Shown: positions 3,565 to 61,120 of the stretch, piece by piece
Position numbering within the stretch: position 1 is the first letter of the stretch
Layout: each line of letters starts with the position of its first letter
Sequence record: OL615013
DNA length: 64,000 nucleotides
Reading direction: 5' to 3' (one strand)
DNA from: Shigella phage ChubbyThor
Position numbers and translations under genes: made by a program
The notes under the pieces: model-generated
What the model saw: the letters and a program-made list of their open reading frames with translations, nothing else
What the model was told of the DNA's origin: nothing
Databases searched by the model: none

Positions 3565-4610
3565 ACCACACCTTCCAGGAACTTAGGATCAACGATCTTG
3601 CGGTCAACTGGAGAATGGGTGAGCGCAATGTTCAAACCATGATCCTGAATCCGGTTCATGTTGATGAGCTTATCGTTCAGTTTGCAGTACAGGCAGTATG
3701 CCATTTGCATGATCAAGCCACGATCAGCATCATATTCCTTCAGGTGGGCGACCACAGTTTCCCACGGGCTACCGATATCACAGTGATGAAGCACACCAGT
3801 GAACAGATTGCGGATATGGTTCTGGTTGGTCACGTTCTTGAAGTGAATCATGGAGTTGATGAACCCAGCTTCTACTTTGGTGTCCTTCGTGATCTTGCCC
3901 AGCTGCTTCTGGCTGACTTCATTGTTATAGTAATGAAGATTGTTAGAGAAGAGCTTGTACTGGCCGACATCAACATCCAGCACCTGAGCAATCACTTCCT
4001 GAAGAATAGAGAACTCAATGAAGTTGATTGAACTCATACCCCACAGAACATCCTGTGAGCGGTTGATGACCGTCAGGTTCAGACGACCTTCAACGATGGC
4101 GAACAACAGAGCCAGGTTACACACCATGTCTTTAGTCTTCGCTTCGCCGCTCTCGCTGAACTTCGCCAGACCAGCATCTGAATCTAGAGCCGGATCATAG
4201 ATGGTGAGGTACGCCTGACGGGTGTTTGGGTTCTTGCGCAGACGGTTGATGACGCTATCCAGCTGGCCATGGGCGTACAGACGCGGACCATAAGCGGCTC
4301 GCCATGTGTGGCCGTTGTCGGAAAAGTTGGCGGCGCGGGGCAACACGCGGGACAGGAAGCGAACGTCATCGCGCCCGGACAGAACCCAGAAGGTCTCGCC
4401 GATGGCAGCGATAGCCGATGAGTTACGGCCTTCAACGGAAAGCCAGCGGTCACGGATGTCACTGACGGTGATAGTCACACCATCAAGGAATCGGGTGCCG
4501 TCCGTGTTGATCTCCGCATTACCAGGATCAGATTCAATTCCGTATTCGCGGATAGCCAAGACAGCCTGCTTCAGCATGTCATTGTTGTTAATTGCTTTGA
4601 TTTCCATCAA
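3561..4610 (-). CDS. thymidylate-synthase-family deoxypyrimidylate C5-hydroxymethylase/methylase (dUMP- or dCMP-modifying)
   Basis: 349 aa; TS core blocks recognisable: RQAYLTIYDP (cf. RRIIVSAWNV), DMVCNLALLF (catalytic Cys region), RSQDVLWGMSSINF (cf. RSCDVFLGLPFNIA), NNLHYY (cf. GDTHLY); ~100-aa N-terminal extension. Confidence 0.75.
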   Translation of the reverse strand: MMEIKAINNNDMLKQAVLAIREYGIESDPGNAEINTDGTRFLDGVTITVSDIRDRWLSVEGRNSSAIAAIGETFWVLSGRDDVRFLSRVLPRAANFSDNGHTWRAAYGPRLYAHGQLDSVINRLRKNPNTRQAYLTIYDPALDSDAGLAKFSESGEAKTKDMVCNLALLFAIVEGRLNLTVINRSQDVLWGMSSINFIEFSILQEVIAQVLDVDVGQYKLFSNNLHYYNNEVSQKQLGKITKDTKVEAGFINSMIHFKNVTNQNHIRNLFTGVLHHCDIGSPWETVVAHLKEYDADRGLIMQMAYCLYCKLNDKLINMNRIQDHGLNIALTHSPVDRKIVDPKFLEGVV

Positions 4611-5281
4611 TCAATACTCCCAAAATCACGACAGAGGAATGCCATTACAGCCTGGTCTACTGTTAGACCGTGAGACTTCATCATACCTGCGGCCACCGTA
4701 GGGAACAAGCCTTTATGGCGCTGGCGATGGTCTTGAACACGCTCCCACTTCTCTACCACGAGGCTCTCATTGAAGTCCGCACCGCCGTTACGTGATTTAA
4801 CACGGGCTATGCAGGTTTCAAGAGGGGTGTCCATGAAGAGAACAACCAGTTCGCGCGGTGGGCGCGTCAGGCGGGGGATCCAGGAACTCAGTAGAGTTGA
4901 AGGGATGATGCCTTCGAAGATCACATCGTATACCTGATATTCAGGTAGATCAGCGATGCTCAGGGCGAATAGCATTTGTTCGGTATCCTTCAGGGAATCA
5001 ACCCCCTTGGACTTTGACTTGTCATATTTGCCGATACACACCACGTTGAATGACGGGCAGACCGTCAACATAATCTTGCCATCATGCGTCACAACATACG
5101 CCTGAGGATCCCTCTCCGCCAGCTGAGACGGTACGGTGGATTTGCCGCTACCATTGGATCCTTTGACGTAATAGAGTTGCCCTCGTGCTGGGTAGATCCC
5201 CTTTACGACAGGCGGTTTAATGAATGTGTGGACGGGGCGCTTGAGCAACCCCTTGAGGGAGTAGGACATAGACTGCTCCAA
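4607..5281 (-). CDS. P-loop kinase, polynucleotide-kinase-like; candidate modified-base (5-hmdU) DNA kinase
   Basis: 224 aa; Walker A YYVKGSNGSGKST resembles T4 PseT kinase domain P-loop; basic lid region ARVKSRNGG; overlaps TS-family gene by 4 nt. Confidence 0.5.
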   Translation of the reverse strand: MEQSMSYSLKGLLKRPVHTFIKPPVVKGIYPARGQLYYVKGSNGSGKSTVPSQLAERDPQAYVVTHDGKIMLTVCPSFNVVCIGKYDKSKSKGVDSLKDTEQMLFALSIADLPEYQVYDVIFEGIIPSTLLSSWIPRLTRPPRELVVLFMDTPLETCIARVKSRNGGADFNESLVVEKWERVQDHRQRHKGLFPTVAAGMMKSHGLTVDQAVMAFLCRDFGSID

Positions 5282-5287
5282 TAAACA

Positions 5288-5318
5288 AAAGGAGCTGCTA
5301 TTATAGCAGCCCCTTCAT
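5288..5318 (-). terminator. intrinsic terminator hairpin (GCUGCUAUAAUAGCAGC) followed by U-run on minus-strand RNA
   Basis: Perfect 7-bp palindrome gctgcta-tta-tagcagc between stop of 5344..6210 gene and kinase start; U-tract on minus strand. Confidence 0.55.
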
Positions 5319-5343
5319 CTATTGAACAGCTTCTGAACTTAAA

Positions 5344-6210
5344 TTACGCGGCAGCTTTCGCTTCGGCCAGCGCCTGAGGCAACCAGGCGTTGATTGCTTT
5401 GACCAGAGACTCGGCATCGGCCTCTTTGATCTTCTGGCGTTTGGTGAAGGACTTGCCGTTCACGTACAGACTGAAGCCCCAGCCACCGGAAACGATAGGC
5501 GCGACGTCAACGTATGTGTTGGTGCGGGCATGCAGGTTTTCAGGGTTGGCCAGTTCGGTGACCGGGAACTGGAACCAGCGCATGTCTGGGTTCACGTAGC
5601 TCAGGAACACACCTGGGACAACTCCTGCTTCAATCGCAGCCAAGACCGGACCGTGGTTAGAAGCGCGAGCCGCGTCAACCATTTCTTCACGTTTGGTATG
5701 ACGGCGTTTACGCTCTTCCAGCGCCGCCTGCGGGGTCAGGGTCTTACCCTTCGCCGCTTCTTTCAGCATAGAAGACGCCAGGGAACCCACTTTCGCGTCG
5801 GACGGCTGATTACCTTCTTCCAGCGCTGCGTTGACTGCGTCTTTAACCGCGTCTACCGGGGCGTCGGACACTGGGGCTTCACCTGCGTCGGCGTTACCAG
5901 CACCAGCGGTTGCGTCGGCGGAGATCGGCGCTTCAGCAACAACGGTTTCAGCGTCTTTCAGGGATACTTCAGCGTGGGCTTGCTCTTGGGCTTGCGCCAG
6001 AGCCTGCTGAGTTTCTTCCTTCTCTTCAGCGCTCAGACCTTCAATCAGTTCGAATCCGTTGGCGGACTGAAGAACGCCTTCCACCATACGGCGCAGGGTA
6101 ACGTTGCCGATCATCAGGCCTGCTTCTTTGATTTCAGCCTGGATAGCCGTAACGTCTTTGCCTTCAATTTCAATTTTGGTTCCAGAATCTACATGAAGAA
6201 TATATGACAT
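5344..6210 (-). CDS. Ala/Glu-rich low-complexity protein, function unknown
   Basis: ORF track 5344..6312; likely true start MSYILHVDSG at ~6210 (upstream codons are leader); own promoter and terminator. Confidence 0.5.
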   Translation of the reverse strand: MSYILHVDSGTKIEIEGKDVTAIQAEIKEAGLMIGNVTLRRMVEGVLQSANGFELIEGLSAEEKEETQQALAQAQEQAHAEVSLKDAETVVAEAPISADATAGAGNADAGEAPVSDAPVDAVKDAVNAALEEGNQPSDAKVGSLASSMLKEAAKGKTLTPQAALEERKRRHTKREEMVDAARASNHGPVLAAIEAGVVPGVFLSYVNPDMRWFQFPVTELANPENLHARTNTYVDVAPIVSGGWGFSLYVNGKSFTKRQKIKEADAESLVKAINAWLPQALAEAKAAA

Positions 6211-47089: not shown

Positions 47090-49294
47090 TTAGATTTTGA
47101 TCTCTTTCTCTGCCAGTTCGGCAGTGACCTTGTACTTCACGCCATCCACTTCAACTTCCATGGTTGACTCTTCCAGGTCGAGGTCGGTGAACCAGCCGTG
47201 GCCAGCAACGATACCATACACCACTTTAGACAGCGTCTTGTTCAAGGCGCGGACTTCAGTGATGGCCGCCTTGGCAGCAGCGTCGATCCAGTTTTCGATC
47301 AGCTGTTTCTGTACGGCTTCAGGCACGGCAGTGATCGCAGGAGACTTCACGAATGCTTCGTATTCCTTCAGAGCATTGGCGATGAACAAGTCACCCGCAT
47401 TGAGTTTCTTGTTCTCGGCAATCTTCTTCTGTACTGCCGCGATGCTAGGCAGAGAAGACGCTCCAGCGATCTTAACGTTCAGCTCACGGCTCATGTAGAC
47501 ATCCGTGGAGTCCTTCAGTTCGGTCTTCGGTGAGAAGCCGTAATCGCGGATGCCGTAGGAGGACAGGAACTCTGCCGCCTCAGCGCCGTACTGTACTGCC
47601 AGGCCTTTGGCGTTACCTTTGCCAACCAGTTCATCACGGAAGAACTTCAGCACCTTCTGCTTGCCTTTCAGGGCTTCCAGACGGACATTATCCGCAAAGA
47701 ACTGAGCAGCACTGATGTTCTTGACCATGGCGCGGTTGACCAGCGGTACGCTTTCCAGGTTCAGGACAAACACTTCCGGACCACCGAACACATGGACGCC
47801 CATCTGGCACAGATTGGTTACAACTTCAACATCAGCCCTGAACGGCAGAGTCTTCACGTTGATGATGCCGTCTTTGACGATGGTGTAGTTGCGCCACTGG
47901 AAAGTATCCAGTTCTTCAGGCAGACCGAACTTCTTCTGCACGAACTCCGGAATCGCCACAGTGCCGTGCTGGACAGTGCGTACACTGATATTAGGGCGTT
48001 CGGAGTTATAGACCAAATCGCTGATTGGCACAACACCCAGATCGTTGTTAGGTTCGAACGTCGGGTTCCACTCTTCGTGCTCGGCCAGCTTGAGAGCCAG
48101 GGCTTTGCGCTCTTCTTTGGACTCGGCGTTCGCGATCTGTTCTGCCAGCTTGTCTTCGGTATCGTCCAGTTTCTGAGCCGTACCGCGACCGATGCTCTTG
48201 TAGGAGAACATAGGATGTTTGGTAGCAACACACACGCCAGCTTCAGCCAGATACGTCAGCACGTCAACGACGGTCGTCGCATCTTCAGCTGGAACCAGGT
48301 CATAATCAATACCGTCAACGCCGCGCAGCTGGTCATCAACGATGGCCTGGGTCAGATCAACTTTGATGTTGGAGTAGTCCTGCTTGGTGAAGCAGTTGCT
48401 GTACTGTTTGATGAAGCGAACGTCACCCGTTTTCTTCAGGGCAGCCCACACCAGGTCTGCGTCCATGATGTGTACGCCGTAGAACGCCAGCACGTATGCC
48501 GCCTGGATGTCCGCCAGCGCATCAAGCTGGTCGATCATGTTAGGATTGACGACCCACAGCTTCGTGACGCTCTCAGGGATGCTCACGTGGCCGATAGGAT
48601 GGTCTTCATCCGGCTGTACCGCCAGCACAGTTGCTACGCCGTTTTCAACGTAGATGGCATGATCATACAGCAACGGAACATCAACAACCACTTTCGGCAC
48701 CGAGGACTTCAGTACGTTTTCCAGCTCGGTCTGATATTCGGTCTGGCCTTCGGCGAACACGTGAGTCGCGCCGGAACGTTCAGACATCAGAGCCAGCAGT
48801 TCGCGGTTACAGTACCAGCCGTATTCGATGAATGTGACGTTGTCGAAAGCGGAAGGAAGTTTTTCGGCGGTCTCCAGGATCTCATTGGAGCGCCAGCAGT
48901 TGTCATAACCATCGGTCATGAACGCCAGGTTGTTGACGTAGCCGGGTTTCTTCAGGTCACGCGCAGTATCCATCGCCAGTTTCAATGGTTCAACAAAACC
49001 AGTACAGCCGGATGGTTGTAGGAAGCGGTCGATCAGTTTGTTCAGCTCGCTCAGGTCAGATGCTGCACTAACCTGACGGCCAGCGAACACAGTACCAAAG
49101 TCGCCACGGGATGAGAAATACAGAACACTCACAGTATCTTCCGGTTTCACCAGAGAAGGCAGGTTCTCCTTCAGATGCTTACGGACTTCAGGGAGCGCAC
49201 GGTACATCGAATAAGAGATGTCCACAACGATTACATGGTTGGACGGGGCAGCAGTCGCAACCGCATTCTTAAATTCTAATGATTCAATCATCGT
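47090..49294 (-). CDS. von Willebrand factor A (vWA) domain protein, large
   Basis: ORF track 47090..49375; start MIESLEF; MIDAS motif VVDISYSM (DxSxS) near N-terminus; rest unassigned. Confidence 0.55.
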   Translation of the reverse strand, partial: TMIESLEFKNAVATAAPSNHVIVVDISYSMYRALPEVRKHLKENLPSLVKPEDTVSVLYFSSRGDFGTVFAGRQVSAASDLSELNKLIDRFLQPSGCTGFVEPLKLAMDTARDLKKPGYVNNLAFMTDGYDNCWRSNEILETAEKLPSAFDNVTFIEYGWYCNRELLALMSERSGATHVFAEGQTEYQTELENVLKSSVPKVVVDVPLLYDHAIYVENGVATVLAVQPDEDHPIGHVSIPESVTKLWVVNPNMIDQLDALADIQAAYVLAFYGVHIMDADLVWAALKKTGDVRFIKQYSNCFTKQDYSNIKVDLTQAIVDDQLRGVDGIDYDLVPAEDATTVVDVLTYLAEAGVCVATKHPMFSYKSIGRGTAQKLDDTEDKLAEQIANAESKEERKALALKLAEHEEWNPTFEPNNDLGVVPISDLVYNSERPNISVRTVQHGTVAIPEFVQKKFGLPEELDTFQWRNYTIVKDGIINVKTLPFRADVEVVTNLCQMGVHVFGGPEVFVLNLESVPLVNRAMVKNISAAQFFADNVRLEALKGKQKVLKFFRDELVGKGNAKGLAVQYGAEAAEFLSSYGIRDYGFSPKTELKDSTDVYMSRELNVKIAGASSLPSIAAVQKKIAENKKLNAGDLFIANALKEYEAFVKSPAITAVPEAVQKQLIENWIDAAAKAAITEVRALNKTLSKVVYGIVAGHGWFTDLDLEESTMEVEVDGVKYKVTAELAEKEIKI

Positions 49295-49511
49295 TATTGC
49301 CTTCTTCAGGGTTGTCTTCGGCCTCACCTTCCGGCTTGACCAGCATATGTTCAAGGAAATCGCGATTGAGTTCAATCTGACTCATCAGCGTTTCCGATGG
49401 GCTAAAGCGGCGGTCGAGGTTGTCGACGCCCGCACGTTCAAATGGTTTGGCCATATCAGCCGCCCTTGACTTCAGTAACGCCAGGGATCGACCGCAGGGC
49501 TTGGCGAACAT
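49284..49511 (-). CDS. small acidic protein (start uncertain)
   Basis: ORF track 75 aa; overlaps vWA gene start. Confidence 0.3.
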   Translation of the reverse strand: MFAKPCGRSLALLKSRAADMAKPFERAGVDNLDRRFSPSETLMSQIELNRDFLEHMLVKPEGEAEDNPEEGNNDD

Positions 49512-49857: not shown

Positions 49858-51522
49858 TCAGATTTGTGATGCCAGTTCTACTACGAGAGGAGCGGCACGG
49901 ACACGCGCATCTTCCAGAGTTTGAGTGTTGAAGAACTTGCCGTCACGATACACCAGCTGGTGCTGGTTGTCGGCGTCTTGCACCTGATCAAAGGTGATAC
50001 CGTCAACCAACACTAGTTTACCCTGAGAGTCTTTAATGACTTTAAGGAAACCACGCGCAGACTTTTTAGTCCCGCCTTTGTCGGTCTTCGGCTCTTTGAA
50101 GATCTCACGGAATTCGCCGTTCACCTTACCAGCCGTTGCTTTCACCGCCGTGCCAGTACTGTCACGGGTGTTCATCTGGTAGGTGTAGGAACCGATACCG
50201 AACACCACGTTGATGGAAGCGAAGTTCCGGCCAGCCAGACGACTAAAGATCTGGTCTTCACGTGCCAGGGTGATGGAGTCACCGTAGATCAGACCGATGT
50301 GTTCGTCCAACAGGAAGTGGCCAGTTTCAGTTTGAGTACCGCCAAAGATCTCCCACAGGCGCTGGATAGAGCCGACTGCTTCAGAACGGCTGATGATATT
50401 ACGGTCGTCTGCCATCAGAGAGTTGATCGTGCCTTCGCCTGTGATCAGGTGATAGGTGTTCGTCTCTTCGATGTGAATGACTTCAGTGCTGCTAGACACG
50501 CCGCTGATGTTCAGCGTGGCGCGGTCTTTGAACCCCTCAATGCGGTAGCCGCCGACGATATGAACTGGGTCGCCCGAGTCAGGGCGGATCACGACTTTAC
50601 CGTTACGCGCCATGATAATGTCTTTCAGGCGAGGGAGATAGTCGTCGATGACCTGCCAGTAATCCCACGCATCAGACACGATGCTGACGATGCCATCAGG
50701 ATACACGTCCTGCACCAGGCGGCGGAAGGTTTCGAATTCGCCATCCTTCGTACCCATACACATCACGGCGTGTTCGGTAGCCGCAACAGAACCAGCAACG
50801 ACATAGTCTTCGTCGATGTCTGCGCCATAATACTCTTCTACGAAGTCCAGGGCAGGGTTGGTATCGGTGCCTTTGAAGAACACCAGATGACCGGAACCGG
50901 AAGACGCCGCGTCATGCCATCCACTCATGCCACGGAAGGAGAAGTCGTGGCCTTGGTAGTCGATGAACCAATGGTCCGGCGACACGCCTGTAGCGAGGGC
51001 AGCTTTCACCATCAGTGCCTTGTAATGCAGGGCGATGGTGGCGTTCGTCATCGGCTTCCAGATCTCAGAGCTGAACACAGTCTCCAGATAGTTGGTCAGC
51101 CAGTAGAACTCCGGCAGGGTGTTGAACATCACATACACCGGAACGCCATATGGGCACATGGTGCCTTCAGGCAGAGCACGGACTTCGATAGGCAGGTAGC
51201 CGAGGTCATGCAGGGCTTCAATATGCTCTGTGCCGACGCGGCCTGGACCCAGGACTTTGTTCATGCGACGGGCATACTTCTTCAACACCTTGGCCTTTGG
51301 GCGCTGGAAGAATGCTTCGTCAAACAGTTCGTGGAACCAGGTCATGAAGCCCTGGATGCCCCAGACCACCACGCCGTTCTTCGGCAGGTGAGAGTTGAAC
51401 AGTTTGTTGGAGCGCGGAGTTCCGTTGGAGAACACCAGCTCGCTGCCTTCAGGGAACTGATAGATGTGCCCTGATTTGTAGAAGTCGATTGCATGGATTG
51501 GGTCTAAGTGGCGCATGCTCAT
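49858..51522 (-). CDS. nicotinamide phosphoribosyltransferase-family enzyme (NadV/Nampt-like; candidate nicotinamide ADP-ribose transferase of an NAD+ reconstitution pathway)
   Basis: 554 aa; Nampt blocks HDFSFRGMSG, GTDTNPALD, VVIRPDSGDP; 4-nt overlap with upstream Prs-like gene. Confidence 0.8.
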   Translation of the reverse strand: MSMRHLDPIHAIDFYKSGHIYQFPEGSELVFSNGTPRSNKLFNSHLPKNGVVVWGIQGFMTWFHELFDEAFFQRPKAKVLKKYARRMNKVLGPGRVGTEHIEALHDLGYLPIEVRALPEGTMCPYGVPVYVMFNTLPEFYWLTNYLETVFSSEIWKPMTNATIALHYKALMVKAALATGVSPDHWFIDYQGHDFSFRGMSGWHDAASSGSGHLVFFKGTDTNPALDFVEEYYGADIDEDYVVAGSVAATEHAVMCMGTKDGEFETFRRLVQDVYPDGIVSIVSDAWDYWQVIDDYLPRLKDIIMARNGKVVIRPDSGDPVHIVGGYRIEGFKDRATLNISGVSSSTEVIHIEETNTYHLITGEGTINSLMADDRNIISRSEAVGSIQRLWEIFGGTQTETGHFLLDEHIGLIYGDSITLAREDQIFSRLAGRNFASINVVFGIGSYTYQMNTRDSTGTAVKATAGKVNGEFREIFKEPKTDKGGTKKSARGFLKVIKDSQGKLVLVDGITFDQVQDADNQHQLVYRDGKFFNTQTLEDARVRAAPLVVELASQI

Positions 51523-52373
51523 TTTACACGTCCTGTATTTTCAGTTTTGAAAGGAAGACCGTCGGCGGTGATATTCTCCCACCAGACAGTGTCGGCATAC
51601 ACAGCATCGTAAATCCCGTCGAAAACAGAGAGACCTTTGCTGAAGATGCCATGGGTAACGAAGAGCGTCATGTGTTTGGGCTTGTGCTTCTGAAGCTCTT
51701 TGCCTAACTCAACGAACGTGCGCCCACCGTCGCAGATATCATCAACCACAACCAGATAGCGGTCTTTGATCAGTTCAGGGTTTGTAATGCTCACCCCAAT
51801 GATCTCACCAGTCTTGGTGTCACGGTTCTTGTGTCCGTAGACAACAGGAACACCATCCAGAGACAGGCTGAGGGCTTCGGTCTTCTTCGCCGCGCCACCG
51901 TCAGGGGCTACCAACACAGCATTGTTCCCACGGATGAACCAGCCCAGATACTGACGCACGATGTAATCTTGCGGGACAACATGGACGTTGTTGATCAGAG
52001 AAGTCACAACATGGCTGTGAGGGTCTTTGATCGCCACGCGGTCAAAGTTCATGCTATTGATGAACTCAGCCGCCCACTTCACAGACAGAGGCTCGCCGAA
52101 GTCGCAATGGCGGTCCTGGCGAGCATACGGGAAGTAAGGGATATACGCATGGAATGTCGTCAGACGATCCACGTTGCCCAGGCCACGCACGGCGTTTACC
52201 AGAAGCGCCAGCTCAATGAAGTCGGCTGATGATTTGATGTGAGCATCAATCACCACGTTCTGGACGTGACCGACAGGGATGCCAGCCTTTTGGATCTTGA
52301 TATGTTCCTCACCACCTGGGAAGGTGAAGTGCTTGTAGAACACATCTTGGTCGTTCAATTTCAAACGAAACAT
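51519..52373 (-). CDS. ribose-phosphate pyrophosphokinase-family enzyme (Prs-like; candidate ADP-ribose pyrophosphokinase)
   Basis: 284 aa; IPYFPYARQDRH (cf. IPYFGYARQDRR) and PRPP-binding loop VVVDDICDGGRT. Confidence 0.8.
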   Translation of the reverse strand: MFRLKLNDQDVFYKHFTFPGGEEHIKIQKAGIPVGHVQNVVIDAHIKSSADFIELALLVNAVRGLGNVDRLTTFHAYIPYFPYARQDRHCDFGEPLSVKWAAEFINSMNFDRVAIKDPHSHVVTSLINNVHVVPQDYIVRQYLGWFIRGNNAVLVAPDGGAAKKTEALSLSLDGVPVVYGHKNRDTKTGEIIGVSITNPELIKDRYLVVVDDICDGGRTFVELGKELQKHKPKHMTLFVTHGIFSKGLSVFDGIYDAVYADTVWWENITADGLPFKTENTGRVK

Positions 52374-52483: not shown

Positions 52484-53278
52484 TTATTTGTAGGAATCGA
52501 CGATGGCCTTGAACAGCGCGTCCTTCTGGTCGGTTGGGATATAATCCGCCGGAGCCAGCAAGAGCCGCCTGATGTCTTCACAGCAGCCTTTCTGCTCTTC
52601 GGCGCTCATCTTATCCCAAGTGGTGGCATTAAAGTAGATCCCACCCTTGTAAGCCGCCGTGCAAGTCTTGGCCAGGCGAACAACGAGTTCTGAATACAGT
52701 TCATCAGGCCGCATGTGTGAACGCAAATATGTTTCCACTCTGGCCTGGACTTTGCTGTTGTGTTGGTCATTGTGAAGTTCGTTGTCGGTATGAATAAATT
52801 CAGCACCGAATCCGCGACTTGGGTCTCGTGGATGATGGAACACGAAAGACTGGCTATGACCTTTCAAGAATTCCATCCCAGCCATATGATTTATCTTCCC
52901 CCTTTCGGAGATGTACTGCAAGATATCTATCTTCGCATCGGCGGTGGCCGCCTCCAACATCTGCTTCTCCACGACGGCGCGGTAGGCTTCCAGTTCCCAC
53001 AACTGGGAGAAAGTCTTGTCATAGGCCAGCTTCTTACCCAACTCTTCATCAAAGTTGGCAGGGTCGATGGAAGTAGAGCTATTCTTGCCCCAGACGACAA
53101 AGCCGTTGTCCATCTTGAAATGGCAGGTGATGACACGATGACCGCCGACTTCACGGTCTTCATAGATGACTTCAGCAATGTGGGACTTCAGGAGGTCTGG
53201 AGACAGCTTCAGACCTTCGCGAACAGATTTACCCTTCAGCTCAACACCTTTGGGTTCATTACGATTGATGGTTGCCAT
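52484..53278 (-). CDS. hypothetical protein
   Basis: ORF track 52484..53311; start MATINRNEPK. Confidence 0.45.
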   Translation of the reverse strand: MATINRNEPKGVELKGKSVREGLKLSPDLLKSHIAEVIYEDREVGGHRVITCHFKMDNGFVVWGKNSSTSIDPANFDEELGKKLAYDKTFSQLWELEAYRAVVEKQMLEAATADAKIDILQYISERGKINHMAGMEFLKGHSQSFVFHHPRDPSRGFGAEFIHTDNELHNDQHNSKVQARVETYLRSHMRPDELYSELVVRLAKTCTAAYKGGIYFNATTWDKMSAEEQKGCCEDIRRLLLAPADYIPTDQKDALFKAIVDSYK

Positions 53279-53660
53279 TCTGTGTTTCCCGTAATTGGTT
53301 GCATACAACAACTACTTTACGGCACATGTCGATATCGAACAAGCCGATATGGCAATCACGCTTCTTGATCCCCAGCTTATGCGCCAGCCAACTGTAAGCG
53401 TCGCTCCTGCTCCTCTCTCCGCTTTTCCACAATGGGTCAAACGATCTATGGGCTTTTCGCTTCTCGGCACGGAGAGCGGCATTCGCCATCCTTCCCAGAG
53501 GTTGTCTGCCGTCGCCATGGGCATGGCAACCGACACGAGCGTCACATGGAGTGCATACCCAGAACTTCAGATTGCGGAGGTCAGGGCGATGAGGGTGGAG
53601 GACGTCACCACCGACGAATTCGGCTGGGTGGCCGCAGTAATCACAGATGACAGGTTTCAT
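53259..53660 (-). CDS. zinc-ribbon protein
   Basis: ORF track 53259..53687; MKPVICDYCGHP ... WVCTPCDARVGCHAH Cys/His cluster. Confidence 0.4.
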   Translation of the reverse strand: MKPVICDYCGHPAEFVGGDVLHPHRPDLRNLKFWVCTPCDARVGCHAHGDGRQPLGRMANAALRAEKRKAHRSFDPLWKSGERSRSDAYSWLAHKLGIKKRDCHIGLFDIDMCRKVVVVCNQLRETQNGNHQS

Positions 53661-53720
53661 ATTCTTTGTCCAAAAGAAACCCCGCACATGGCGGGGTTGC
53701 TCAGGCCGAGGCCAACAGGG

Positions 53721-54092
53721 TTATTTCAGCAGCGCTTCCAGTTCTTCAACAGATTTGCCTTCCAGCTCCTGCTGTTTCTTACGCTGGATCAGCTCCAGGA
53801 TAACCTGGTTGTTCGCCTTACGCTCTGCCGCGTCTTTGCTGTCGTCACGCTCTTTCAGCTTAACGCCGATGATGTGCTTGACAACGTCGAAGCGCAGCTG
53901 CAGTTCGGAGTCAACGTTGCTTTTGGTGCCGATGAAATCTTCTTCATCGGTTTCCGCTGCCTTCACCTGACGGCTCAGACCTTTGGCCATTTCGTTCAGG
54001 GCGGTCAGGCTAAGGTCCCAGACCTGCTCAACAGACAGCAGACCTTTGTTGGATTCGAAGCGCAGTTTCAGACGGGTTGCTTTATCAAACAT
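53721..54092 (-). CDS. hypothetical coiled-coil protein
   Basis: ORF track 123 aa. Confidence 0.45.
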   Translation of the reverse strand: MFDKATRLKLRFESNKGLLSVEQVWDLSLTALNEMAKGLSRQVKAAETDEEDFIGTKSNVDSELQLRFDVVKHIIGVKLKERDDSKDAAERKANNQVILELIQRKKQQELEGKSVEELEALLK

Positions 54093-54136: not shown

Positions 54137-56155
54137 TTAGAACACAACTTTCACAGTGCGGTTGAACGAGCCGCTCACCTTCACGAACACGTGGTTGCGT
54201 TGGGTGGTAGAGAAGCCCAGACCGGACAGCTGCTCAGTGCTTGGCTGTACTTTAATCTTACCACCTAACATTTCAAAAACCTTGCGGTGTTTATCAAGTT
54301 CCGGCTTCAGATATTCGTTGTAGAAGCCACGGGTGCCGACAGGGTTAGCACAACCTTCCAGGATGAAGAACACGTGCTTGTTGCCCGTCTGCTCGCCGTC
54401 CCAATGGTTTGGTGAGTTCAGAACCAGCTGTACCTTCTGGAAGACGGAGGTCTTGATGCCCCAGATTTCCTGAGAGCGAGCGTCGTCTTTCAGGGTAGAA
54501 CTGATGTCGACCACCTGACCAGCGCGTACCTGAACCACAACAGCCAACGTGCGGTCTTTGTTTCCCAGACCAGGATGCGAGAAGCGCTTGGTCTGGCCTT
54601 TGTATTCAACTTCGATTTCGAAGCCCACATCGCAGGTTTCGCGCTTGCTGTAGTTGGTGACATAGAACTCATAGTTCCCGTCACGCAGCTTGCATTCATC
54701 GCTGAAGAAGATGTTCTCCACCGGACGGCGGTTCGGGTCAATACCGTCCATACCGTTCATGTCGATGTCCAGGGTTGCACCAGTTGCCGAACGACGGTTG
54801 TTGAAATACACGTGGTTGTGAAGAGGATCGTTCAGGCTCAGATCCAGGTCGTCGTTGTTATGCCAAGCCAGCGACACACGGAGGAAGCTGTCGACGTTGC
54901 CGCCTGCGGTCTTCACGCGCTCTTTGATGGAGTCGGCCACTTCACCGTTGTATGACCAGCTGAAGCCGTTGTTCCACTTGAACAGGTTAGGAGCACCTGC
55001 CGTAGCCGGAGCGATCAGGGACATCAGGTTGCCAGTGTGAGAGTTTTCAACCAGCACTTCCAGGGAATGCGCCTTTGGCAACACGTTGGTCAGGAAGTCG
55101 TCGATGGTGATCTCTTCAACCTTGTCCAGGGACTTGGTCGGAGTCTTCACTTCAGACGCCAGCTGAGCAAACGGGTCCATCTTCTTCTGCGCTGCCAGGT
55201 CGGCGAACAGAACGTTGTTGATGGTCAGATCGTCATACACGGCATAACGGCGACCCAGTGAATCGGTCAGACCCAGCGCTTCGACTTCTTTCTGCGCGTT
55301 TTCAATCATGGACTTCGTGACCAGCGCGGTTGGGCGCTTGTAGTTCGTCGGAGCGACTTTGGCTTCAAAGGACTTCACGGCGGTTTCCAGATCCCGACCT
55401 TCATTGAGGTCTACCAACAGAGAGCCAATCACGGTATTGCGGATGCCGTGAGGGGTGTGTCCGTTTGCACGGTAGCCAGTACGCCAAGCCCACAGAGCGC
55501 GTTTCTCTTCTGCAGTTTGTTCGTACAGGGTCTTGCTCGTCACGAACGCCTGTACTGCTGCTTTGTGCTCTTCACCACGATACAGAGAATTCTGATCAAT
55601 CAGTTCCAGAACGATTTCGGCCGATTCCAGAGACAGTTCACGCAGGCCGCGCTCAAACACTTCAATCGCCTGGCGGATTTCACCCTTCTTAGAAGCGATG
55701 ACATCAGCCCGCAGAACATAGCTGGGCAGCAGGTCGGTGTGGAAGTGGTTGTAGGTGCGGACATTACCGTCTTTCATTTCGTGATTCGACTCAACACCGA
55801 CTTTCTTGGTATCGTTGAAGTACACGTCGACGATTGCGTGTTGCTTGACATACGCAGACAGCGCCGCGGCGACAACGTCGTATTCGTTACCCAGCTGAAT
55901 GTTATCCCAGATAGAGATCACGTTCAGGTCGGCGTCGATGGTCACCACACCGCCGATGTTACGGATGAATTGTTTACAGCAGGTGCAGTCGTGCTCGGTG
56001 CGCTCACGGTAGAGCGGGTTGGTGCCAGCAGGGAAAGAAGACAGATACAGATCCCACAGAGCATCTTTATCGATGTTGGTCATGAACAGACCAGTTGCTG
56101 ACATGGCCAGCACATTATTGTTTACAGCTACTGCGAAGGGCTTAAATTCTGACAT
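54137..56155 (-). CDS. large hypothetical protein (672 aa)
   Basis: ORF track; no motif recognised by eye. Confidence 0.55.
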   Translation of the reverse strand: MSEFKPFAVAVNNNVLAMSATGLFMTNIDKDALWDLYLSSFPAGTNPLYRERTEHDCTCCKQFIRNIGGVVTIDADLNVISIWDNIQLGNEYDVVAAALSAYVKQHAIVDVYFNDTKKVGVESNHEMKDGNVRTYNHFHTDLLPSYVLRADVIASKKGEIRQAIEVFERGLRELSLESAEIVLELIDQNSLYRGEEHKAAVQAFVTSKTLYEQTAEEKRALWAWRTGYRANGHTPHGIRNTVIGSLLVDLNEGRDLETAVKSFEAKVAPTNYKRPTALVTKSMIENAQKEVEALGLTDSLGRRYAVYDDLTINNVLFADLAAQKKMDPFAQLASEVKTPTKSLDKVEEITIDDFLTNVLPKAHSLEVLVENSHTGNLMSLIAPATAGAPNLFKWNNGFSWSYNGEVADSIKERVKTAGGNVDSFLRVSLAWHNNDDLDLSLNDPLHNHVYFNNRRSATGATLDIDMNGMDGIDPNRRPVENIFFSDECKLRDGNYEFYVTNYSKRETCDVGFEIEVEYKGQTKRFSHPGLGNKDRTLAVVVQVRAGQVVDISSTLKDDARSQEIWGIKTSVFQKVQLVLNSPNHWDGEQTGNKHVFFILEGCANPVGTRGFYNEYLKPELDKHRKVFEMLGGKIKVQPSTEQLSGLGFSTTQRNHVFVKVSGSFNRTVKVVF

Positions 56156-56270
56156 GATGTAGTCTTCCTGTTTCAGTTCAAATGTGCGCCCCGTTTGCCA
56201 GGGCGCTTCGTTTAAGTGAGGTCAATAATACGTTGAAAAAAGTTATTGAAGAATGAAGTAAAGGGAATCT

Positions 56271-57494
56271 TTATTCAGGTTTCTTCAAACGGTCCAGCAA
56301 ATTGACGGAACCACGTTTGAGCACGACTTCATCACAGCGCTTTTTGTATTCCCCACCGCCGTCATAGCTGACCTTGCCCCGAGGTTTTTCACCGCGCCCA
56401 ACCGCCTCAACACAGCGAGTGTACTTGCTCAGTTCACAGAACATGTTCTCCAGCTGCATGACGTTCATGCATTGGTCTACAGGCTCTTCGGCCGACCAGA
56501 ATTGCTCGCGAACATACCCATATTGGGAGTATACCGCGTCCTGATTATCCCGTAGCCAGAATATGCATTCTTCGTGAGTCATGCCGTCCTTGTTCAGGAA
56601 CAGCAGATCAATACCTGCGCGACAGCCCGGTCCGGCGATCGTGAAGTGATTCTCGCTGAACGGATAACCAGGCATGTACGTGAAATCAACCCAGATCTGA
56701 TAGGCCAGGAATGGACCAAGCCCTTCAATGTCGTCGTACATGCGCTGGTATACTTCCAGAGGAGTATCAAGACGCAGCAGGTCATGGAAGTAATTTGGGT
56801 GCTTGTTGACGAATGCCTTCAGGGAACGGATAACACGCATCGGCATGTATGGTTCCCATCCCTCGATGGTATATTCACCAGGATTCTCTTCGACCAGCTT
56901 CTTGGCGACCTTGTAGTCCATCTCGTCCACAATACCCTGGCCAACGCGATACACTTTCACCATCATCCCACCGAAGCGCTGCTCCTTGTGGTTGACAACC
57001 AGCTCAGGGAAAGCCAGGCATTGCTTCAGGCCGCCTGTGTTGAAGGCATTGGTGAACACCTTGCCGCCGTCGGCCTCGAACTTCTGAAGTCGTTCGCGGG
57101 TTGCGTCAAGGTTGATCTTGGCGAAGTCTTTGATCGTCATCGCGCCGCCGATAGCCTGGATCGGATCCCAGAGGTTGAACATGCGGAACAGAACGCAGTT
57201 GAACATCTTGTCTGCCATGCCCAGAGCATCGTTCTTGACGATGTTATTGATCAGGTTGAGAGACTGCCTGTCGTGCTCTCTCCGGACGTTACAGAACTTG
57301 ACCTGCCGTAGTATAGGATTATTGGTCCAAGGGGCAGGAAGACGCTGGACGTCCTTCTTGACGTGGATCTTATAGCGCTCGCTCATCCATTCGTAAGACA
57401 GGCGGGTATGGGTCGGACTGAGAACCGGTTTGGCCGACTTTATCTTTTCTTCACGGACACCGCAGTACGGGACGTCCAGGGCTTTATCTTTCAT
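56271..57494 (-). CDS. hypothetical protein (407 aa)
   Basis: ORF track; no motif recognised by eye. Confidence 0.55.
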   Translation of the reverse strand: MKDKALDVPYCGVREEKIKSAKPVLSPTHTRLSYEWMSERYKIHVKKDVQRLPAPWTNNPILRQVKFCNVRREHDRQSLNLINNIVKNDALGMADKMFNCVLFRMFNLWDPIQAIGGAMTIKDFAKINLDATRERLQKFEADGGKVFTNAFNTGGLKQCLAFPELVVNHKEQRFGGMMVKVYRVGQGIVDEMDYKVAKKLVEENPGEYTIEGWEPYMPMRVIRSLKAFVNKHPNYFHDLLRLDTPLEVYQRMYDDIEGLGPFLAYQIWVDFTYMPGYPFSENHFTIAGPGCRAGIDLLFLNKDGMTHEECIFWLRDNQDAVYSQYGYVREQFWSAEEPVDQCMNVMQLENMFCELSKYTRCVEAVGRGEKPRGKVSYDGGGEYKKRCDEVVLKRGSVNLLDRLKKPE

Positions 57495-57510
57495 GGTATC
57501 CTCTTAGAAT

Positions 57511-57540
57511 ACGAAAAACAGAGGCCATTATAGCCTCTGT
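57511..57540 (-). terminator. intrinsic terminator (ACAGAGGCuauaaugGCCUCUGU + UUUUU)
   Basis: Between stop at 57564 and start at 57494. Confidence 0.65.
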
Positions 57541-57563
57541 TGTTTAGTGAATAACTGTATATC

Positions 57564-58445
57564 TTAATCGATACGGGTCAGCTGGGTGATAGATGATTGC
57601 ACTGGGCTGGCCACATAGATACGGACGTTGGCTTTCCATTCACCCCAGATCAACGGCAGAGTTGGGAAGTTGTCTTCATTGAAAACAAACACGGGAATAT
57701 AACTCTCGACTGTTTCACCAGAGAACGCCTGGAAGCCCATCTTGGCGTACCCCATAATCTCGTCAACAAAGTCGAACGGAGCGAAGGCAACACCAGCGTG
57801 TTCGTTGCATCCGAGTCGACCTGGGGTAGCCGTGCCCGTCAGAATGATTTCGGTTATCTGGCGCTTAGGCTCGGTGGTCAACATATCAGAGAAGTCCGGC
57901 TCTTTGAATGCTGCCATGTTCTTCAGGAACTTGCCAGCCGGGTACTCTTTGCCGTCGACGGTGATGGTGTCTACCACTTTGATGCACGCCTGGGGGAATT
58001 CCCCTTCGATGCGTAGACTTTCGCGTGGGAAGCCTTTGTTGTAGTAGTAATCCAGTGCAGGCACAACTTCACCTTCATTACGAATGAACTTGCTCATGTT
58101 GGAAGCATAAACGCGCTGTAGGCACTCATCGCCGTCGAAACCAGCAATGTGAGCCACGCCGTCATTGACGGTGGTGATATCACCCTGGGCGTCCATGATC
58201 TTTTTCATGGCATTGATACGAGCTTCCGGATCAGCATAAACCGGGTTATCGCTCGGCTTGGGGGTGACAGACAGAGTCAATGCCACGTCATGGTCAAAGA
58301 ATGCCGCTTCCATCAGTTCGCGGGTTTCTTCCAGCACCAGTTTCGCCTGATTGCGGATCTTACCAAAGTCGGGCGATGTGACGTCGCCCTTTGCATTACC
58401 GAAAGCCAGATTCAGATTCACGTTCTTAGAAAATGTAGTTGTCAT
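57564..58445 (-). CDS. hypothetical protein (293 aa)
   Basis: ORF track. Confidence 0.5.
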   Translation of the reverse strand: MTTTFSKNVNLNLAFGNAKGDVTSPDFGKIRNQAKLVLEETRELMEAAFFDHDVALTLSVTPKPSDNPVYADPEARINAMKKIMDAQGDITTVNDGVAHIAGFDGDECLQRVYASNMSKFIRNEGEVVPALDYYYNKGFPRESLRIEGEFPQACIKVVDTITVDGKEYPAGKFLKNMAAFKEPDFSDMLTTEPKRQITEIILTGTATPGRLGCNEHAGVAFAPFDFVDEIMGYAKMGFQAFSGETVESYIPVFVFNEDNFPTLPLIWGEWKANVRIYVASPVQSSITQLTRID

Positions 58446-58461
58446 GATTTAGCGACTCCAG

Positions 58462-58857
58462 TTATTCGCTTTTGGCCTTTGTAGGCCGGATAATGTATTT
58501 TGGAACCAGCTTCCATTCAGGAACCTGATCGTGTTTAACCACTTTAATGCGTGACATATCGGCGGCTTCGGTGACCTGCTCGGGATGAATGACCTTCACC
58601 ATGTTCCACTGCTCAAGCAGCTTGATGATGCGGTTCATCCTCAGGACATCTTCGCGGTTAAACCCGTTGTAATGCCCGTCCAGCATAAACAGATGCTTGA
58701 AGTGGACGATATAATACTTGCCATACTTATGAAGAATATGACAAGTCTGATACAGAGTATTCGGCTCTTGGCGCGTGTTTACCCCAATTCGGCTCAGTGT
58801 TTCCTTGATCCCCAGGAATATTCCTGGCCGATCTTGGTTCAATTGAACTTCAACCAT
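58462..58857 (-). CDS. regA: RegA translational repressor
   Basis: LYQTCHILHKYGKYYIVHFKHLFMLDG and PEWKLVPKYIIRP match T4 RegA (LYQSCHILQKKGLYYIVHFKEMLRMDG, HEWKLVPKYTIG); start at internal Met (track 58462..58926). Confidence 0.8.
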   Translation of the reverse strand: MVEVQLNQDRPGIFLGIKETLSRIGVNTRQEPNTLYQTCHILHKYGKYYIVHFKHLFMLDGHYNGFNREDVLRMNRIIKLLEQWNMVKVIHPEQVTEAADMSRIKVVKHDQVPEWKLVPKYIIRPTKAKSE

Positions 58858-58955
58858 ACAATCAACGATGCTGGCCTCATCGTTGACGGCTGAAATGTTC
58901 AATATGTCTAGCGTATTGCGCGCCATGACTCATTCCCCTTTTACAATAGTTTGAA

Positions 58956-59378
58956 CTACTTAGCCTTGCGCGGTTTCGCTTTGGCGTTCAGCTCAGTACG
59001 TCCCATCTTCTCGCGTATCTCGGCCAGGACTTCCTTCGGCAAGAAACGGACGTACTCGGATGCCTTCTCCATGCTGATGTAGAAGTACTCGGAGAGTAAC
59101 TTCACGTCAGGATCAATCGGACCTTTCTTAGACCATTTGTCGTAGCGTTTCCGCGCCGGAATGGTGTGAAAGGCATATGACCATTGCATCCATGGAGTGA
59201 CAGCATGCAGCTTGTTCATCTGCTGTGCAGTCACCAGAGTGTCTTTGCTCTGAGCTAAACCACGCCGCGTCATAAACGGGTCGAATCCTTTCAACACTTC
59301 TGGGTCATCAGACTGCAGAAGGTTTTCTTTGCTGCTGTTCAGAGCAGCCAGGTAATCGAACAATCCAGGGGCGGCCAT
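58956..59378 (-). CDS. 62: clamp-loader small subunit gp62-like
   Basis: 140 aa; RKRYDKWSKKG (cf. T4 RGKRYGKWAKL); position between gp44 and regA as in T4. Confidence 0.5.
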   Translation of the reverse strand: MAAPGLFDYLAALNSSKENLLQSDDPEVLKGFDPFMTRRGLAQSKDTLVTAQQMNKLHAVTPWMQWSYAFHTIPARKRYDKWSKKGPIDPDVKLLSEYFYISMEKASEYVRFLPKEVLAEIREKMGRTELNAKAKPRKAK

Positions 59379-59382
59379 AGTA

Positions 59383-60372
59383 TCACTTCCACTTGATGTT
59401 GAGCATGACGTTTGTCAGGAAAAACACAGCATGCAGCCAGACATCGCCGACCTGACGGTGTTCAATCTGAGACTGACCACATACGCATACCAGATCAGGG
59501 ATAGACTCATTCTGAACCAGCATCGGCTTCTCTTTATCCTGTGGTACACAGAACTGGAAGAAGCGGGAATAGAAGTCTTCGGTGATGTAGTTCTGGTTGT
59601 CAGTCACCCACTGCTTCATGCCAGCCCAGTCATTGGCTTTCAACATAGCAACCAGCGTACCGAGGTCAGCCGCTTTCAATACAGCCAGAGCGCGTTCGTC
59701 GATCTTGCCATAGGTGGTGACGTTGTCCTGTAGGGCACCCATGATGCGGCGGTTGTCAGGGAAGTTGCGCTTGACGATGGCGGCCAACACCTGAGGAACG
59801 AACTCAACACCTTCGGCGCGAAGGATTTCAACGCAACGGAGGCAGAACTTGTTCTGAACTTCCAGTGCTTCCTGCTCGTTCCAGATAAAGTCGATCTCAC
59901 GGCAACGGGAGCGCAGAGGTTCGTTGACACGCTGCTTGGCGTTGGTGGTCAGAATGAACGAGCAGTTCTTGGAGACCTTCTCTACGATACCCTTCAGAGA
60001 CTCCTGCGCCGCCATAGACAGGCGCTCCACTTCGTCGAGGATAACGACTTTGCGACCACCGAAGACACTCACGCCAGTAGAGTACTGAATCACGCGATCA
60101 CGGATAACATCAATGCTGTTGTCCAGGGATGCGTTGATCAACAGAGGTTGCTTACAGCCGATTTCGTTACACACGGCCAGAGCAGAGGTGGTCTTGCCAG
60201 TACCAGGTCCAGGGGAGTAGAACAGCATCGAAGGGATGTTGCCGTTGCCACTTGTGATATAACCGTGGATTTTAGCGCGGACGTCCTGGGGGATGATGAT
60301 CTCATCCAGGTTGTCTGGACGATATTTGTTTTCCCATGCGTACTGGTCGGAAACGATAGTGATATTAGACAT
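59383..60372 (-). CDS. 44: clamp-loader ATPase gp44 (AAA+)
   Basis: Walker A SPGPGTGKTT, DEVERL Walker B, SRC motif (LRSRCREI); start MSNITIV (track 59383..60426). Confidence 0.85.
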   Translation of the reverse strand: MSNITIVSDQYAWENKYRPDNLDEIIIPQDVRAKIHGYITSGNGNIPSMLFYSPGPGTGKTTSALAVCNEIGCKQPLLINASLDNSIDVIRDRVIQYSTGVSVFGGRKVVILDEVERLSMAAQESLKGIVEKVSKNCSFILTTNAKQRVNEPLRSRCREIDFIWNEQEALEVQNKFCLRCVEILRAEGVEFVPQVLAAIVKRNFPDNRRIMGALQDNVTTYGKIDERALAVLKAADLGTLVAMLKANDWAGMKQWVTDNQNYITEDFYSRFFQFCVPQDKEKPMLVQNESIPDLVCVCGQSQIEHRQVGDVWLHAVFFLTNVMLNIKWK

Positions 60373-60451
60373 TTCAGCCTCTTGTAGAAGAATCATTTCA
60401 AACGGGCGGGAAAGCCCCGCCCACACATTATAGCATCAGGCTGGAGATTGA

Positions 60452-61120
60452 TTACTCAATCTGTGCGCCGACGAAGTAATTGATCGTCGCATCGGAGGAC
60501 TGGAAGTTCACCATCTGCAGTTCGGCACAGGCGCGCAGAGTGTAGTTGCCTTCGATCATCTTCAGGTTGGCAACGTCCAGCGGCATTACGAAGTCCGGCA
60601 ACGCGGTTTCACCCAGCTCAACAGTGTAGTTGTTGGAGTTATCCAGGGTAGTGGTGGTCGCAACCAGACGAGTTTTGCCGCCCTGAGCAACCAGACGCAC
60701 TGTCTTGTGACCGAGGGTAGAACAGGCGCGGGTCAGTTCTTTCATCTTCTCTGGAGTGATGATCGCTTCAAAGTCGACAGACGGCAGTTCAATGGTGTCA
60801 GCCGGAACGACAGTGAGTTCTTTAGCAGAACGCCAGAATTGCAGCTGAGAGCTTTCGCCTTTCAACAGGATGTAGTCCTGATGGAATTCGGCTTTACCGC
60901 CTTTGAAGGAAGGCAGGCGCTGGATGGCCAGAAGTTTGGTCAGGTCCAGGATAGGGAACTCAAACGGGAAGTCTTCTTCGATCTGTGCCACGGCGATAAC
61001 AGTAGACGAATCGTTGATGCTGCGCAGCATCTTACCCGGTGTCAGAACGATAGATGGGTTGATGGTCTCAAAGTTGGCCAGCAACTGGAGTGTACGTTCG
61101 GAGAGAGTGATCTCTTGCAT
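60452..61120 (-). CDS. 45: sliding clamp gp45
   Basis: 222 aa; N-terminus TLQLLANFETINPSIVL (cf. T4 TALLKNFATINSGIML); upstream of gp44 as in T4. Confidence 0.7.
   Translation of the reverse strand: MQEITLSERTLQLLANFETINPSIVLTPGKMLRSINDSSTVIAVAQIEEDFPFEFPILDLTKLLAIQRLPSFKGGKAEFHQDYILLKGESSQLQFWRSAKELTVVPADTIELPSVDFEAIITPEKMKELTRACSTLGHKTVRLVAQGGKTRLVATTTTLDNSNNYTVELGETALPDFVMPLDVANLKMIEGNYTLRACAELQMVNFQSSDATINYFVGAQIE

Follow-up and report, generated by a model that had tools for sequence, protein, structure and literature searches.

In phage T4, gene 43, which encodes the DNA polymerase, sits beside regA, after genes 45, 44 and 62. Here, we analysed a stretch of 64,000 nucleotides from Shigella phage ChubbyThor (sequence record OL615013; 'the window' in the following), which shares with T4 the order 45-44-62-regA-X on one strand. 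Position X is occupied by three open reading frames (ORFs) of 672, 407 and 293 amino acids (aa) at 54137-58445, which are the subject of this study. In contrast to T4 gene 43, none of the three encoded proteins has a polymerase domain in Pfam and PHROG scans.

The closest described counterparts of one of these proteins, the 407-aa protein, come from hypermodifying phages. Phage ViI encodes two paralogues labelled aG/PT-PPlase or aGPT-Pplase (for 'alpha-glutamyl/putrescinyl thymidine pyrophosphorylase'), namely gp160 and gp247, with gp160 listed as aG/PT-PPlase1 (Lee et al. 2018, PMC5889632, Table 3), and mixed lysates of five proteins, gp160 among them, yielded 5-NeOmdU (PMC5889632). Formation of this product was later accounted for by the kinases, the clade-2 protein gp247, which is a serine:DNA transferase, and the pyridoxal-phosphate-dependent decarboxylase gp226 (Lee et al. 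2021, PMC8989533), while M6 gp55, the counterpart of gp160, could be omitted from the in-vitro reconstitution (PMC8989533). Among the hypermodifying phages of the comparison by Lee et al., a gp160-type paralogue accompanies the 5-hydroxymethyldeoxyuridine (5-hmdU) DNA kinase and Pplase2, the amino-acid:DNA transferase. In our literature search, we found no paper giving gp160 a reaction.

Our analysis suggests, with a probability of roughly 75%, that the three ORFs of the window are functionally separate items which are neighbours only in Ackermannviridae: an orthologue of ViI gp160 (407 aa), a MazG-like pyrophosphohydrolase (293 aa) and a member of the DUF8224 family (672 aa), the latter paired with a small partner gene. 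As a finding in this window, this is already known; the remaining interest lies in the chemistry of the gp160-type protein and in the pair of DUF8224 and its partner. The locus is laid out as follows, with ORF coordinates taken from the ORF listing:

53678-53698, minus strand: terminator-like hairpin, 8-bp stem with 6 GC pairs and a T-run, directly past the partner gene
53721-54092, minus strand: 123-aa ORF, the DUF8224 partner (phrog_2018), outside the range of a preliminary description of the block
54137-56155, minus strand: 672-aa ORF (DUF8224), ATG start
56271-57494, minus strand: 407-aa ORF (aGPT-Pplase paralogue), ATG start
57517-57541, minus strand: terminator-like hairpin, 11-bp stem and a T-run, separating the 293-aa gene from the 407-aa gene
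57564-58445, minus strand: 293-aa ORF (MazG-like), ATG start
58462-58926, minus strand: regA
58956-59378, minus strand: gene 62
59383-60426, minus strand: gene 44
60452-61120, minus strand: gene 45

The preliminary description, which was made from the sequence alone, had reported three ORFs of these sizes beside regA-62-44-45, and this was confirmed at the same positions. It had placed them upstream of that cluster, which holds in plus-strand coordinates only: the genes are transcribed from the minus strand, with 45-44-62-regA first and the three ORFs downstream of regA. Its statement that the proteins have no assignable motif is fair for a reading by eye, but profile tools place the 407-aa and the 293-aa protein in named families. 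At places equivalent to both hairpins, the record of Dickeya phage LIMEstone1 has annotated terminators; in a promoter and terminator scan of the region, site counts were not above those of shuffled-sequence controls. The two hairpins lend weak support to separate transcription units.

Across 54137-58445, the window shares 96% DNA identity with Shigella phage MK-13 and the Salmonella phages P46FS4 and SKML-39, and 95% with Shigella phage Ag3. All four, and with them the phage of the window, are placed in the genus Agtrevirus (Ackermannviridae). It is thus a ViI-like and not a T4-like phage, despite its T4-type 45-44-62-regA string. A DNA match to the stretch was found in 281 phage records. All three proteins are encoded by conserved full-length genes, 90-99% identical to their counterparts in sequenced Agtrevirus phages, and each matches a full-length PHROG family.

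The 407-aa protein belongs to Pfam family PF18723 (HMUDK_hel, in full '5-hmdU DNA kinase, helical domain'), which it matches with E=4e-82 over profile positions 4-278 of 281, scoring 276.2 bits where the cut-off is 25. In a tblastn search it shared 88.2% identity over 407 aa with the coding sequence (CDS) Vi01_130c (note orf00160) of Salmonella phage Vi01, the neighbours of which are the same as in the window, i.e. regA, the MazG-like gene and DUF8224. Judged by its sequence, the protein is orthologous to ViI gp160, the second of the aGPT-Pplase paralogues. Family PF18723 also includes the other members of the ViI gp160 group, M6 gp55, PaMx11 gp50, PhiW-14 gp72 and the C-terminal domain of SP10 gp186. 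We found no difference of substance between ViI gp160 and the 407-aa protein; both share their genome with a 5-hmdU DNA kinase (5-HMUDK) and a dUMP-hydroxymethylase-like gene. The window encodes this kinase (PF18748), a thymidylate-synthase-family gene and a dUTPase_2 within 2444-5281. GenBank records and a paper on the close relative phage SW16-7 already name the 407-aa gene aGPT-Pplase1. The suggestion that the block might hold missing pyrophosphorylase or transferase components of a base-hypermodification pathway was therefore right about the family of the 407-aa protein (88% identity to gp160) but wrong in calling the enzyme 'missing': it has been on the published list of thymidine-hypermodification genes since 2018, and the in-vitro pathway runs without it. 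For glycosyltransferases or rII-like proteins, which had also been considered, there was no Pfam, NCBIfam or PADLOC match with any of the three proteins.

What, then, might the 407-aa protein do? Two of its residues, E349 and C353, form a Glu-x3-Cys motif that is invariant in 34 aligned homologues with identities down to 41%. In hhalign, the segment LENMFC of the 407-aa protein was aligned on VETILC of PaMx11 gp46, an enzyme named PUGT with known structure (PDB 8Z2M) and the catalytic residues E243 and C247 (PMC11472151). From this alignment, one short feature can be assigned:

56436-56450, minus strand: codons of the predicted catalytic residues Glu349 to Cys353

The clade-2 aGPT-Pplases (ViI gp247, M6 gp51, PaMx11 gp46; PDB 8Z2M/8Z2N) are treated in the literature as paralogues of the gp160 type and have a helix-hairpin-helix glycosylase-like fold. 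In our comparison they appeared as remote homologues, of which the Glu-x3-Cys motif and a preceding D..N motif align. With about 110 additional residues, the 407-aa protein is larger than these enzymes; unlike clade 2, its type is dispensable in vitro for serine transfer and 5-NeOmdU formation. Its N-terminal 84 residues match PaMx11 gp50 at 98.5% probability.

Some results weigh against this assignment. The homology to the structurally characterised Pplase2 is statistically weak, with a marginal hhalign similarity (E of about 0.01-0.1): E=0.095 for the single-sequence comparison with PaMx11 gp46 and E=0.0094 over 217 columns against a profile of 10 Pplase2 sequences. A PDB profile search with the 407-aa family did not reach 8Z2M, and the Pfam name, 'kinase helical domain', makes a non-catalytic, DNA-binding role of the protein conceivable. 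The only match returned by the profile search, WDR24, was rejected as spurious; a single-sequence search of the PDB gave nothing meaningful, and NCBIfam and PADLOC gave no match for the 407-aa protein.

Taken further, the non-catalytic role would make the 407-aa protein a helical accessory of the 5-hmdU DNA kinase that binds DNA and aids in finding or flipping the target base. The HMUDK_hel domain is indeed fused to the kinase in SP10 gp186, the gene of PaMx11 gp50 directly follows that of the kinase gp49, and the 407-aa type is not needed for product formation in vitro. However, the kinase domain of SP10 is active by itself, and an invariant E349/C353 pair that aligns with the catalytic pair of Pplase2 is hard to square with a purely structural domain, so that we regard a mere accessory as unlikely. 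We rather favour the view that the 407-aa protein is probably an active enzyme, as its conserved residues suggest. Since it retains the Glu-x3-Cys motif with which Pplase2 attacks C6 of 5-phosphomethyl-dU, it most likely acts on kinase-phosphorylated 5-hmdU in DNA by the same chemistry, in which the thiolate would attack C6. The reaction would proceed through the exocyclic methylene, as in Pplase2, and would have an outcome other than serine transfer. One candidate outcome is the resolution of sites that finish as plain thymidine. In experiments with M6 gp51, the methylene intermediate gave thymidine upon treatment with borohydride, and an enzymatic route from 5-hmdU to thymidine was stated as not known (PMC5889632). 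As the intermediate is chemically reducible to thymidine and this route has been left unsolved, a thymidine-forming role is a reasonable hypothesis: the gp160-type paralogue may be the enzyme that turns phosphorylated 5-hmdU in DNA into plain thymidine.

The 293-aa protein matches phrog_2144, 'MazG-like pyrophosphatase', with E=5.8e-129. A profile built from 12 homologues, some from distant phages, matched Deinococcus radiodurans DR2231 over residues 3-110 (E=8e-6 for a mutant chain, 1.2e-4 for the wild type), in the catalytic four-helix core. DR2231 (PDB 2yeu), the nearest relative with a solved structure, is a MazG-like NTP pyrophosphohydrolase of the all-alpha type and a specific dUTPase. 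The alignment covers the motifs EExxE (E39/E40/E43), GD (G88/D89) and SNxSK; of the acidic residues expected to bind metal (EExxE on one helix, E/DxxD on another), E40, E43 and D89 do not vary in the family of the 293-aa protein, and most sequences keep E39. The 293-aa protein exceeds DR2231 by a beta-rich segment, at about residues 120-190, and by a C-terminal extension of 100 aa. It can be divided into two parts:

57870-58445, minus strand: all-alpha catalytic domain, about residues 1-192
57564-57869, minus strand: C-terminal extension of about 100 aa

The C-terminal part of about 100 aa is present in the aligned Ackermannviridae homologues, and it is absent from phiMAM1, from one Vibrio Ackermannviridae phage and from other phages. 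The catalytic domain (about residues 1-190) was found alone in N4-like phages (Cbunavirus, Efbeekayvirus) and in Vibrio Ackermannviridae, while homologues from one Samunavirus and one Xanthomonas phage have different C-terminal regions.

These profile matches identify the 293-aa protein as an all-alpha NTP pyrophosphohydrolase of the MazG-like type. Three points speak against such an enzyme or its expected substrate. The Glu in the 'ELAD' motif of DR2231 is an Ala in the 293-aa protein, with a nearly invariant D85 one residue earlier; neither Pfam, including MazG, nor NCBIfam gave a match at E<=0.1; and the window already has a dimeric dUTPase_2 in its modification operon (2444-2998), next to which a second dUTPase would be redundant. 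PADLOC likewise gave no match and a single-sequence PDB search nothing meaningful. We suggest that the protein, encoded by what would be the last gene of the 45-44-62-regA string, hydrolyses a pyrimidine deoxynucleoside triphosphate (dUTP and/or dTTP, a substrate we infer) to the monophosphate and pyrophosphate, which would tune the pool for making and incorporating 5-hmdUTP. Such a role in the pyrimidine pool, either by supplying dUMP or by excluding dTTP/dUTP, is plausible for a protein of this family.

For the 672-aa protein, the Pfam release that we scanned lacked the model PF26675 and gave no match, but every full-length homologue listed carries a precomputed PF26675 (DUF8224) assignment. 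The protein also matches phrog_1735 over positions 1-672 of 673. DUF8224 is a large family, with at least 5,302 clusters at 90% identity and 9,285 representatives at 50% identity in a profile search; nearly all of the best 150 of these 9,285 representatives have lengths of 656-715 aa and match over their full extent. With tblastn, we found DUF8224 in 558 phage records from unrelated taxa. Its carriers are Ackermannviridae, rV5-like phages (CR3, KNP2), Caulobacter phiCbK-like phages, Bacillus phage PK16, an N4-like roseophage, cyanophages and Cellulophaga phages, and identity between these groups is about 45-50%. In our literature search for PF26675 or DUF8224, no paper was found. A structure model of the protein suggests the following organisation:

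residues 1 to about 400: N-terminal module, no fold match in the PDB
about residues 420-555 (about 54491-54898, minus strand): TerD-like beta-sandwich
C-terminus: alpha/beta domain

In this model, the TerD-like beta-sandwich, of the Ca2+-binding type, is the sole recognisable domain. It has the fold of the TerD and SCO6318 tellurite-resistance sandwiches (PDB 2kxt, 2qz7) and spans only about 20% of the protein, while the remaining four-fifths are without a structural relative in the PDB. By sequence, there was no Pfam match to TerD at E<=0.1 and no PDB sequence or profile match to TerD; a single-sequence PDB search gave nothing meaningful, and NCBIfam and PADLOC gave no match. A RING finger at E=0.09, the only match of the DUF8224 profile in the PDB, was considered spurious. 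A search of the BFVD structure database with the model returned only uncharacterised viral proteins, including proteins of jumbo phages and one of a giant virus. Two GenBank records label DUF8224 a 'putative DNA-directed RNA polymerase', which we rejected for want of profile or fold support. The Vi01 record (FQ312032.1, 7337-9356) divides DUF8224 between two annotated CDSs, Vi01_129c with 491 aa and Vi01_128c with 183 aa, and tblastn likewise recovered two pieces, residues 1-480 and 489-672. This split is either a frameshift, real or due to a sequencing error, or marks a pseudogene.

To characterise the surroundings of the family, we sampled 80 IMG/VR loci with DUF8224 and another 80 from the genomes of bacteria and archaea and searched them by tblastn with the proteins of the window. 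The 123-aa partner adjoins DUF8224 in 80 of 82 viral loci (62 of 64 outside Ackermannviridae) and in 78 of 80 loci from bacterial or archaeal genomes, i.e. in 158 of 162 over all, nearly always immediately downstream and on the same strand. Partner homologues in the same position were also found in Serratia phage Kashira (37% identity) and on a 210-kb metagenomic contig (50%). The partner itself had no Pfam or PDB match, and a PDB profile search with it was empty; Pfam matches from scans of single family members were scattered noise. In contrast to the partner, homologues of the 407-aa protein, the 293-aa protein and RegA are companions of DUF8224 at none of the 82 viral loci except the 18 from Ackermannviridae. 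Clustering of neighbouring ORFs revealed no third conserved component of the cassette; beyond the pair, the leading ORF clusters at viral loci were antisense shadow ORFs, followed by DNA ligase, and at the bacterial loci the largest cluster outside DUF8224 and its partner spans only 4 of 80. The bacterial pair has no conserved flanks; it was found at 47 loci of Micromonosporaceae, and also in Bradyrhizobium, myxobacteria and others.

This distribution bears on the idea, implied by the preliminary description, that all three proteins are base-hypermodification enzymes acting together as a block. The three genes are contiguous in 18 of 18 Ackermannviridae loci examined, the 407-aa protein is a bona fide member of a hypermodification family, and an operon with kinase and hydroxymethylase genes lies in the same window. 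Yet DUF8224 occurs in many phage families and on Micromonosporaceae chromosomes, with Pplase1 within 6 kb in 0 of the 64 loci outside Ackermannviridae, and neither the kinase nor the hydroxymethylase-like gene was ever found within 6 kb of DUF8224 in the sampled viral loci. Vibrio Ackermannviridae encode their Pplase1 homologue about 50 genes away from the MazG-like gene (locus tag p0105 versus p0159), and the published reconstitution requires none of the three proteins.

A further argument comes from LIMEstone1, which retains regA, the MazG-like gene and the Pplase paralogue intact, but drops DUF8224. Only residues 1-267 of the latter are left, in fragments and fused to the last 109 residues of a NAMPT-like gene; lost are DUF8224 from about residue 268 on, the partner, the two small genes after the partner and a Prs-like gene. 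Because of this deletion, DUF8224 must be dispensable in at least one genus of Ackermannviridae. For DUF8224, a jointly acting block is largely refuted, and for all three proteins together we consider it very improbable. Of the modification-enzyme idea, what survives is the 407-aa protein, for which it is right, and the 293-aa protein, for which it is plausible; for the 672-aa protein it is wrong. The profile searches proposed as a check linked the 407-aa protein to a modification family and the 293-aa protein to MazG-like proteins, while they left the 672-aa protein in DUF8224 only.

In some relatives, homing endonuclease genes interrupt this block. In LIMEstone1, one of them, F-LimVI (5286-6071), separates the Pplase paralogue from what is left of DUF8224, and an HNH endonuclease is found inside the three-gene block of the Salmonella phages Marshall and Maynard. 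In Vibrio Ackermannviridae, as seen in Vibrio phage 207E48.1 (2720-3501), a GroES-like '10 kDa chaperonin' gene stands between regA and a short MazG-like gene of 166 aa.

We suggest that DUF8224 and the 123-aa ORF form a self-contained two-gene cassette of many phage families and bacterial chromosomes that would stand outside the thymidine-hypermodification pathway. Our best guess is that it has a DNA- or nucleotide-directed accessory function, either in replication and repair or in phage-host conflict. The first option would make the pair an accessory of DNA replication or repair, working for instance with DNA ligase on nicks or ends. In the window, the pair follows the clamp and clamp-loader genes at the position of T4 gene 43, and the commonest other neighbour at viral loci is an ATP-dependent DNA ligase (14 of 64), followed by DNA polymerase (9) and a DnaB-like helicase (8). 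Moreover, divergent homologues that have just the N-terminal module in common with the 672-aa protein (hhalign E=1.8e-30) were found in a Pamexvirus and a Bosavirus between ribonucleotide reductase and DNA ligase, in Bosavirus also with polynucleotide kinase. A 133-aa gene that follows the DUF8224-like gene of the Bosavirus could not be detected as a homologue of the partner. The ligase link is, however, a minority pattern and may just mirror residence in replication modules; the model of the 672-aa protein has no nuclease, ligase or polymerase fold; and the bacterial pair is set among unrelated genes. We therefore see a replication or repair accessory as possible but on the doubtful side.

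The second option is a conflict system, which would serve anti-defence in phages and defence or superinfection exclusion when located on a chromosome. Operons of the ter type, which contain TerD, confer phage inhibition. The two-gene format and the missing conserved flanks in 47 Micromonosporaceae loci would fit such a role. So would the defence-like or mobile genes among the handful of bacterial flanks inspected (a NACHT NTPase, an IS481 transposase, a caspase-like protein, a HATPase_c_3 protein and a GajB-like helicase) and the location of the Ackermannviridae pair in a variable region near NAMPT-like and Prs-like genes that resemble a NARP1-type counter-defence and were co-deleted in LIMEstone1. 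On the other hand, PADLOC gave no match, an identity of about 50% across phage families is unusually high for fast-evolving conflict genes, and several of the few bacterial flanks inspected are ordinary regulators and metabolic enzymes. This leaves a conflict system rather doubtful.

Elsewhere in the window lies the modification operon mentioned in the preliminary description, adjoined by a UvsX-like recombinase gene:

1902-5281, minus strand: modification operon, encoding a phage ACT-like domain protein, a dUTPase_2, a small P-loop kinase-like protein, a thymidylate-synthase-family protein and the 5-hmdU DNA kinase
2444-2998, minus strand: dimeric dUTPase_2, domain match
3561-4610, minus strand: thymidylate-synthase-family protein, likely a dUMP hydroxymethylase (Thymidylat_synt, E=4.5e-16)
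4607-5281, minus strand: 5-hmdU DNA kinase (PF18748, E=3.2e-107)

The DUF8224 pair is separated from the Prs-like gene by two small conserved genes (52484-53687, minus strand):

within 52484-53687, minus strand: DUF3268 zinc-finger protein, 142 aa (E=3.7e-36)
within 52484-53687, minus strand: 275-aa protein with an N4 gp49 / Sf6 gp66 domain (Pfam)

The DUF3268 zinc-finger protein also occurs near DUF8224 in 5 viral loci outside Ackermannviridae. The NAMPT-like gene (554 aa, NAPRTase family) and the Prs-like gene (284 aa, ribose-phosphate pyrophosphokinase domains) occupy 49858-52373 on the minus strand with an overlap of 4 nt, and they resemble the NAD+-reconstitution pair NARP1 (Namat and Adps) of phages. 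They are found within 6 kb of DUF8224 in only 6-7 of the 18 Ackermannviridae loci and are deleted in LIMEstone1. A 761-aa protein with a vWA domain is encoded at 47090-49375 (minus strand). Its LIMEstone1 counterpart is annotated as 'confirmed structural protein' and has an acyl-carrier-protein gene beside it, an odd pairing for a virion protein.

Our results bear on two aspects of the biology of these phages. The gp160-type paralogue is a concrete and testable candidate for the source of unmodified thymidine in their DNA. DUF8224, with more than 9,000 clusters at 50% identity, is among the larger phage families that lack a function, and its almost constant pairing with a small protein offers a well-delimited unit of two genes for experiments, together with a natural knockout in Limestonevirus. 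Such a system may extend from many phage families to at least one giant virus and to bacterial chromosomes, and may combine a fold without solved relative with a TerD-like sandwich. Only tentatively, we would go as far as to propose that DUF8224 and its partner are an undescribed two-gene system with an activity of a new kind, either in the handling of DNA or nucleotides or in phage-host conflict, and that, separately, the gp160-type paralogue would be a thymidine-forming enzyme.

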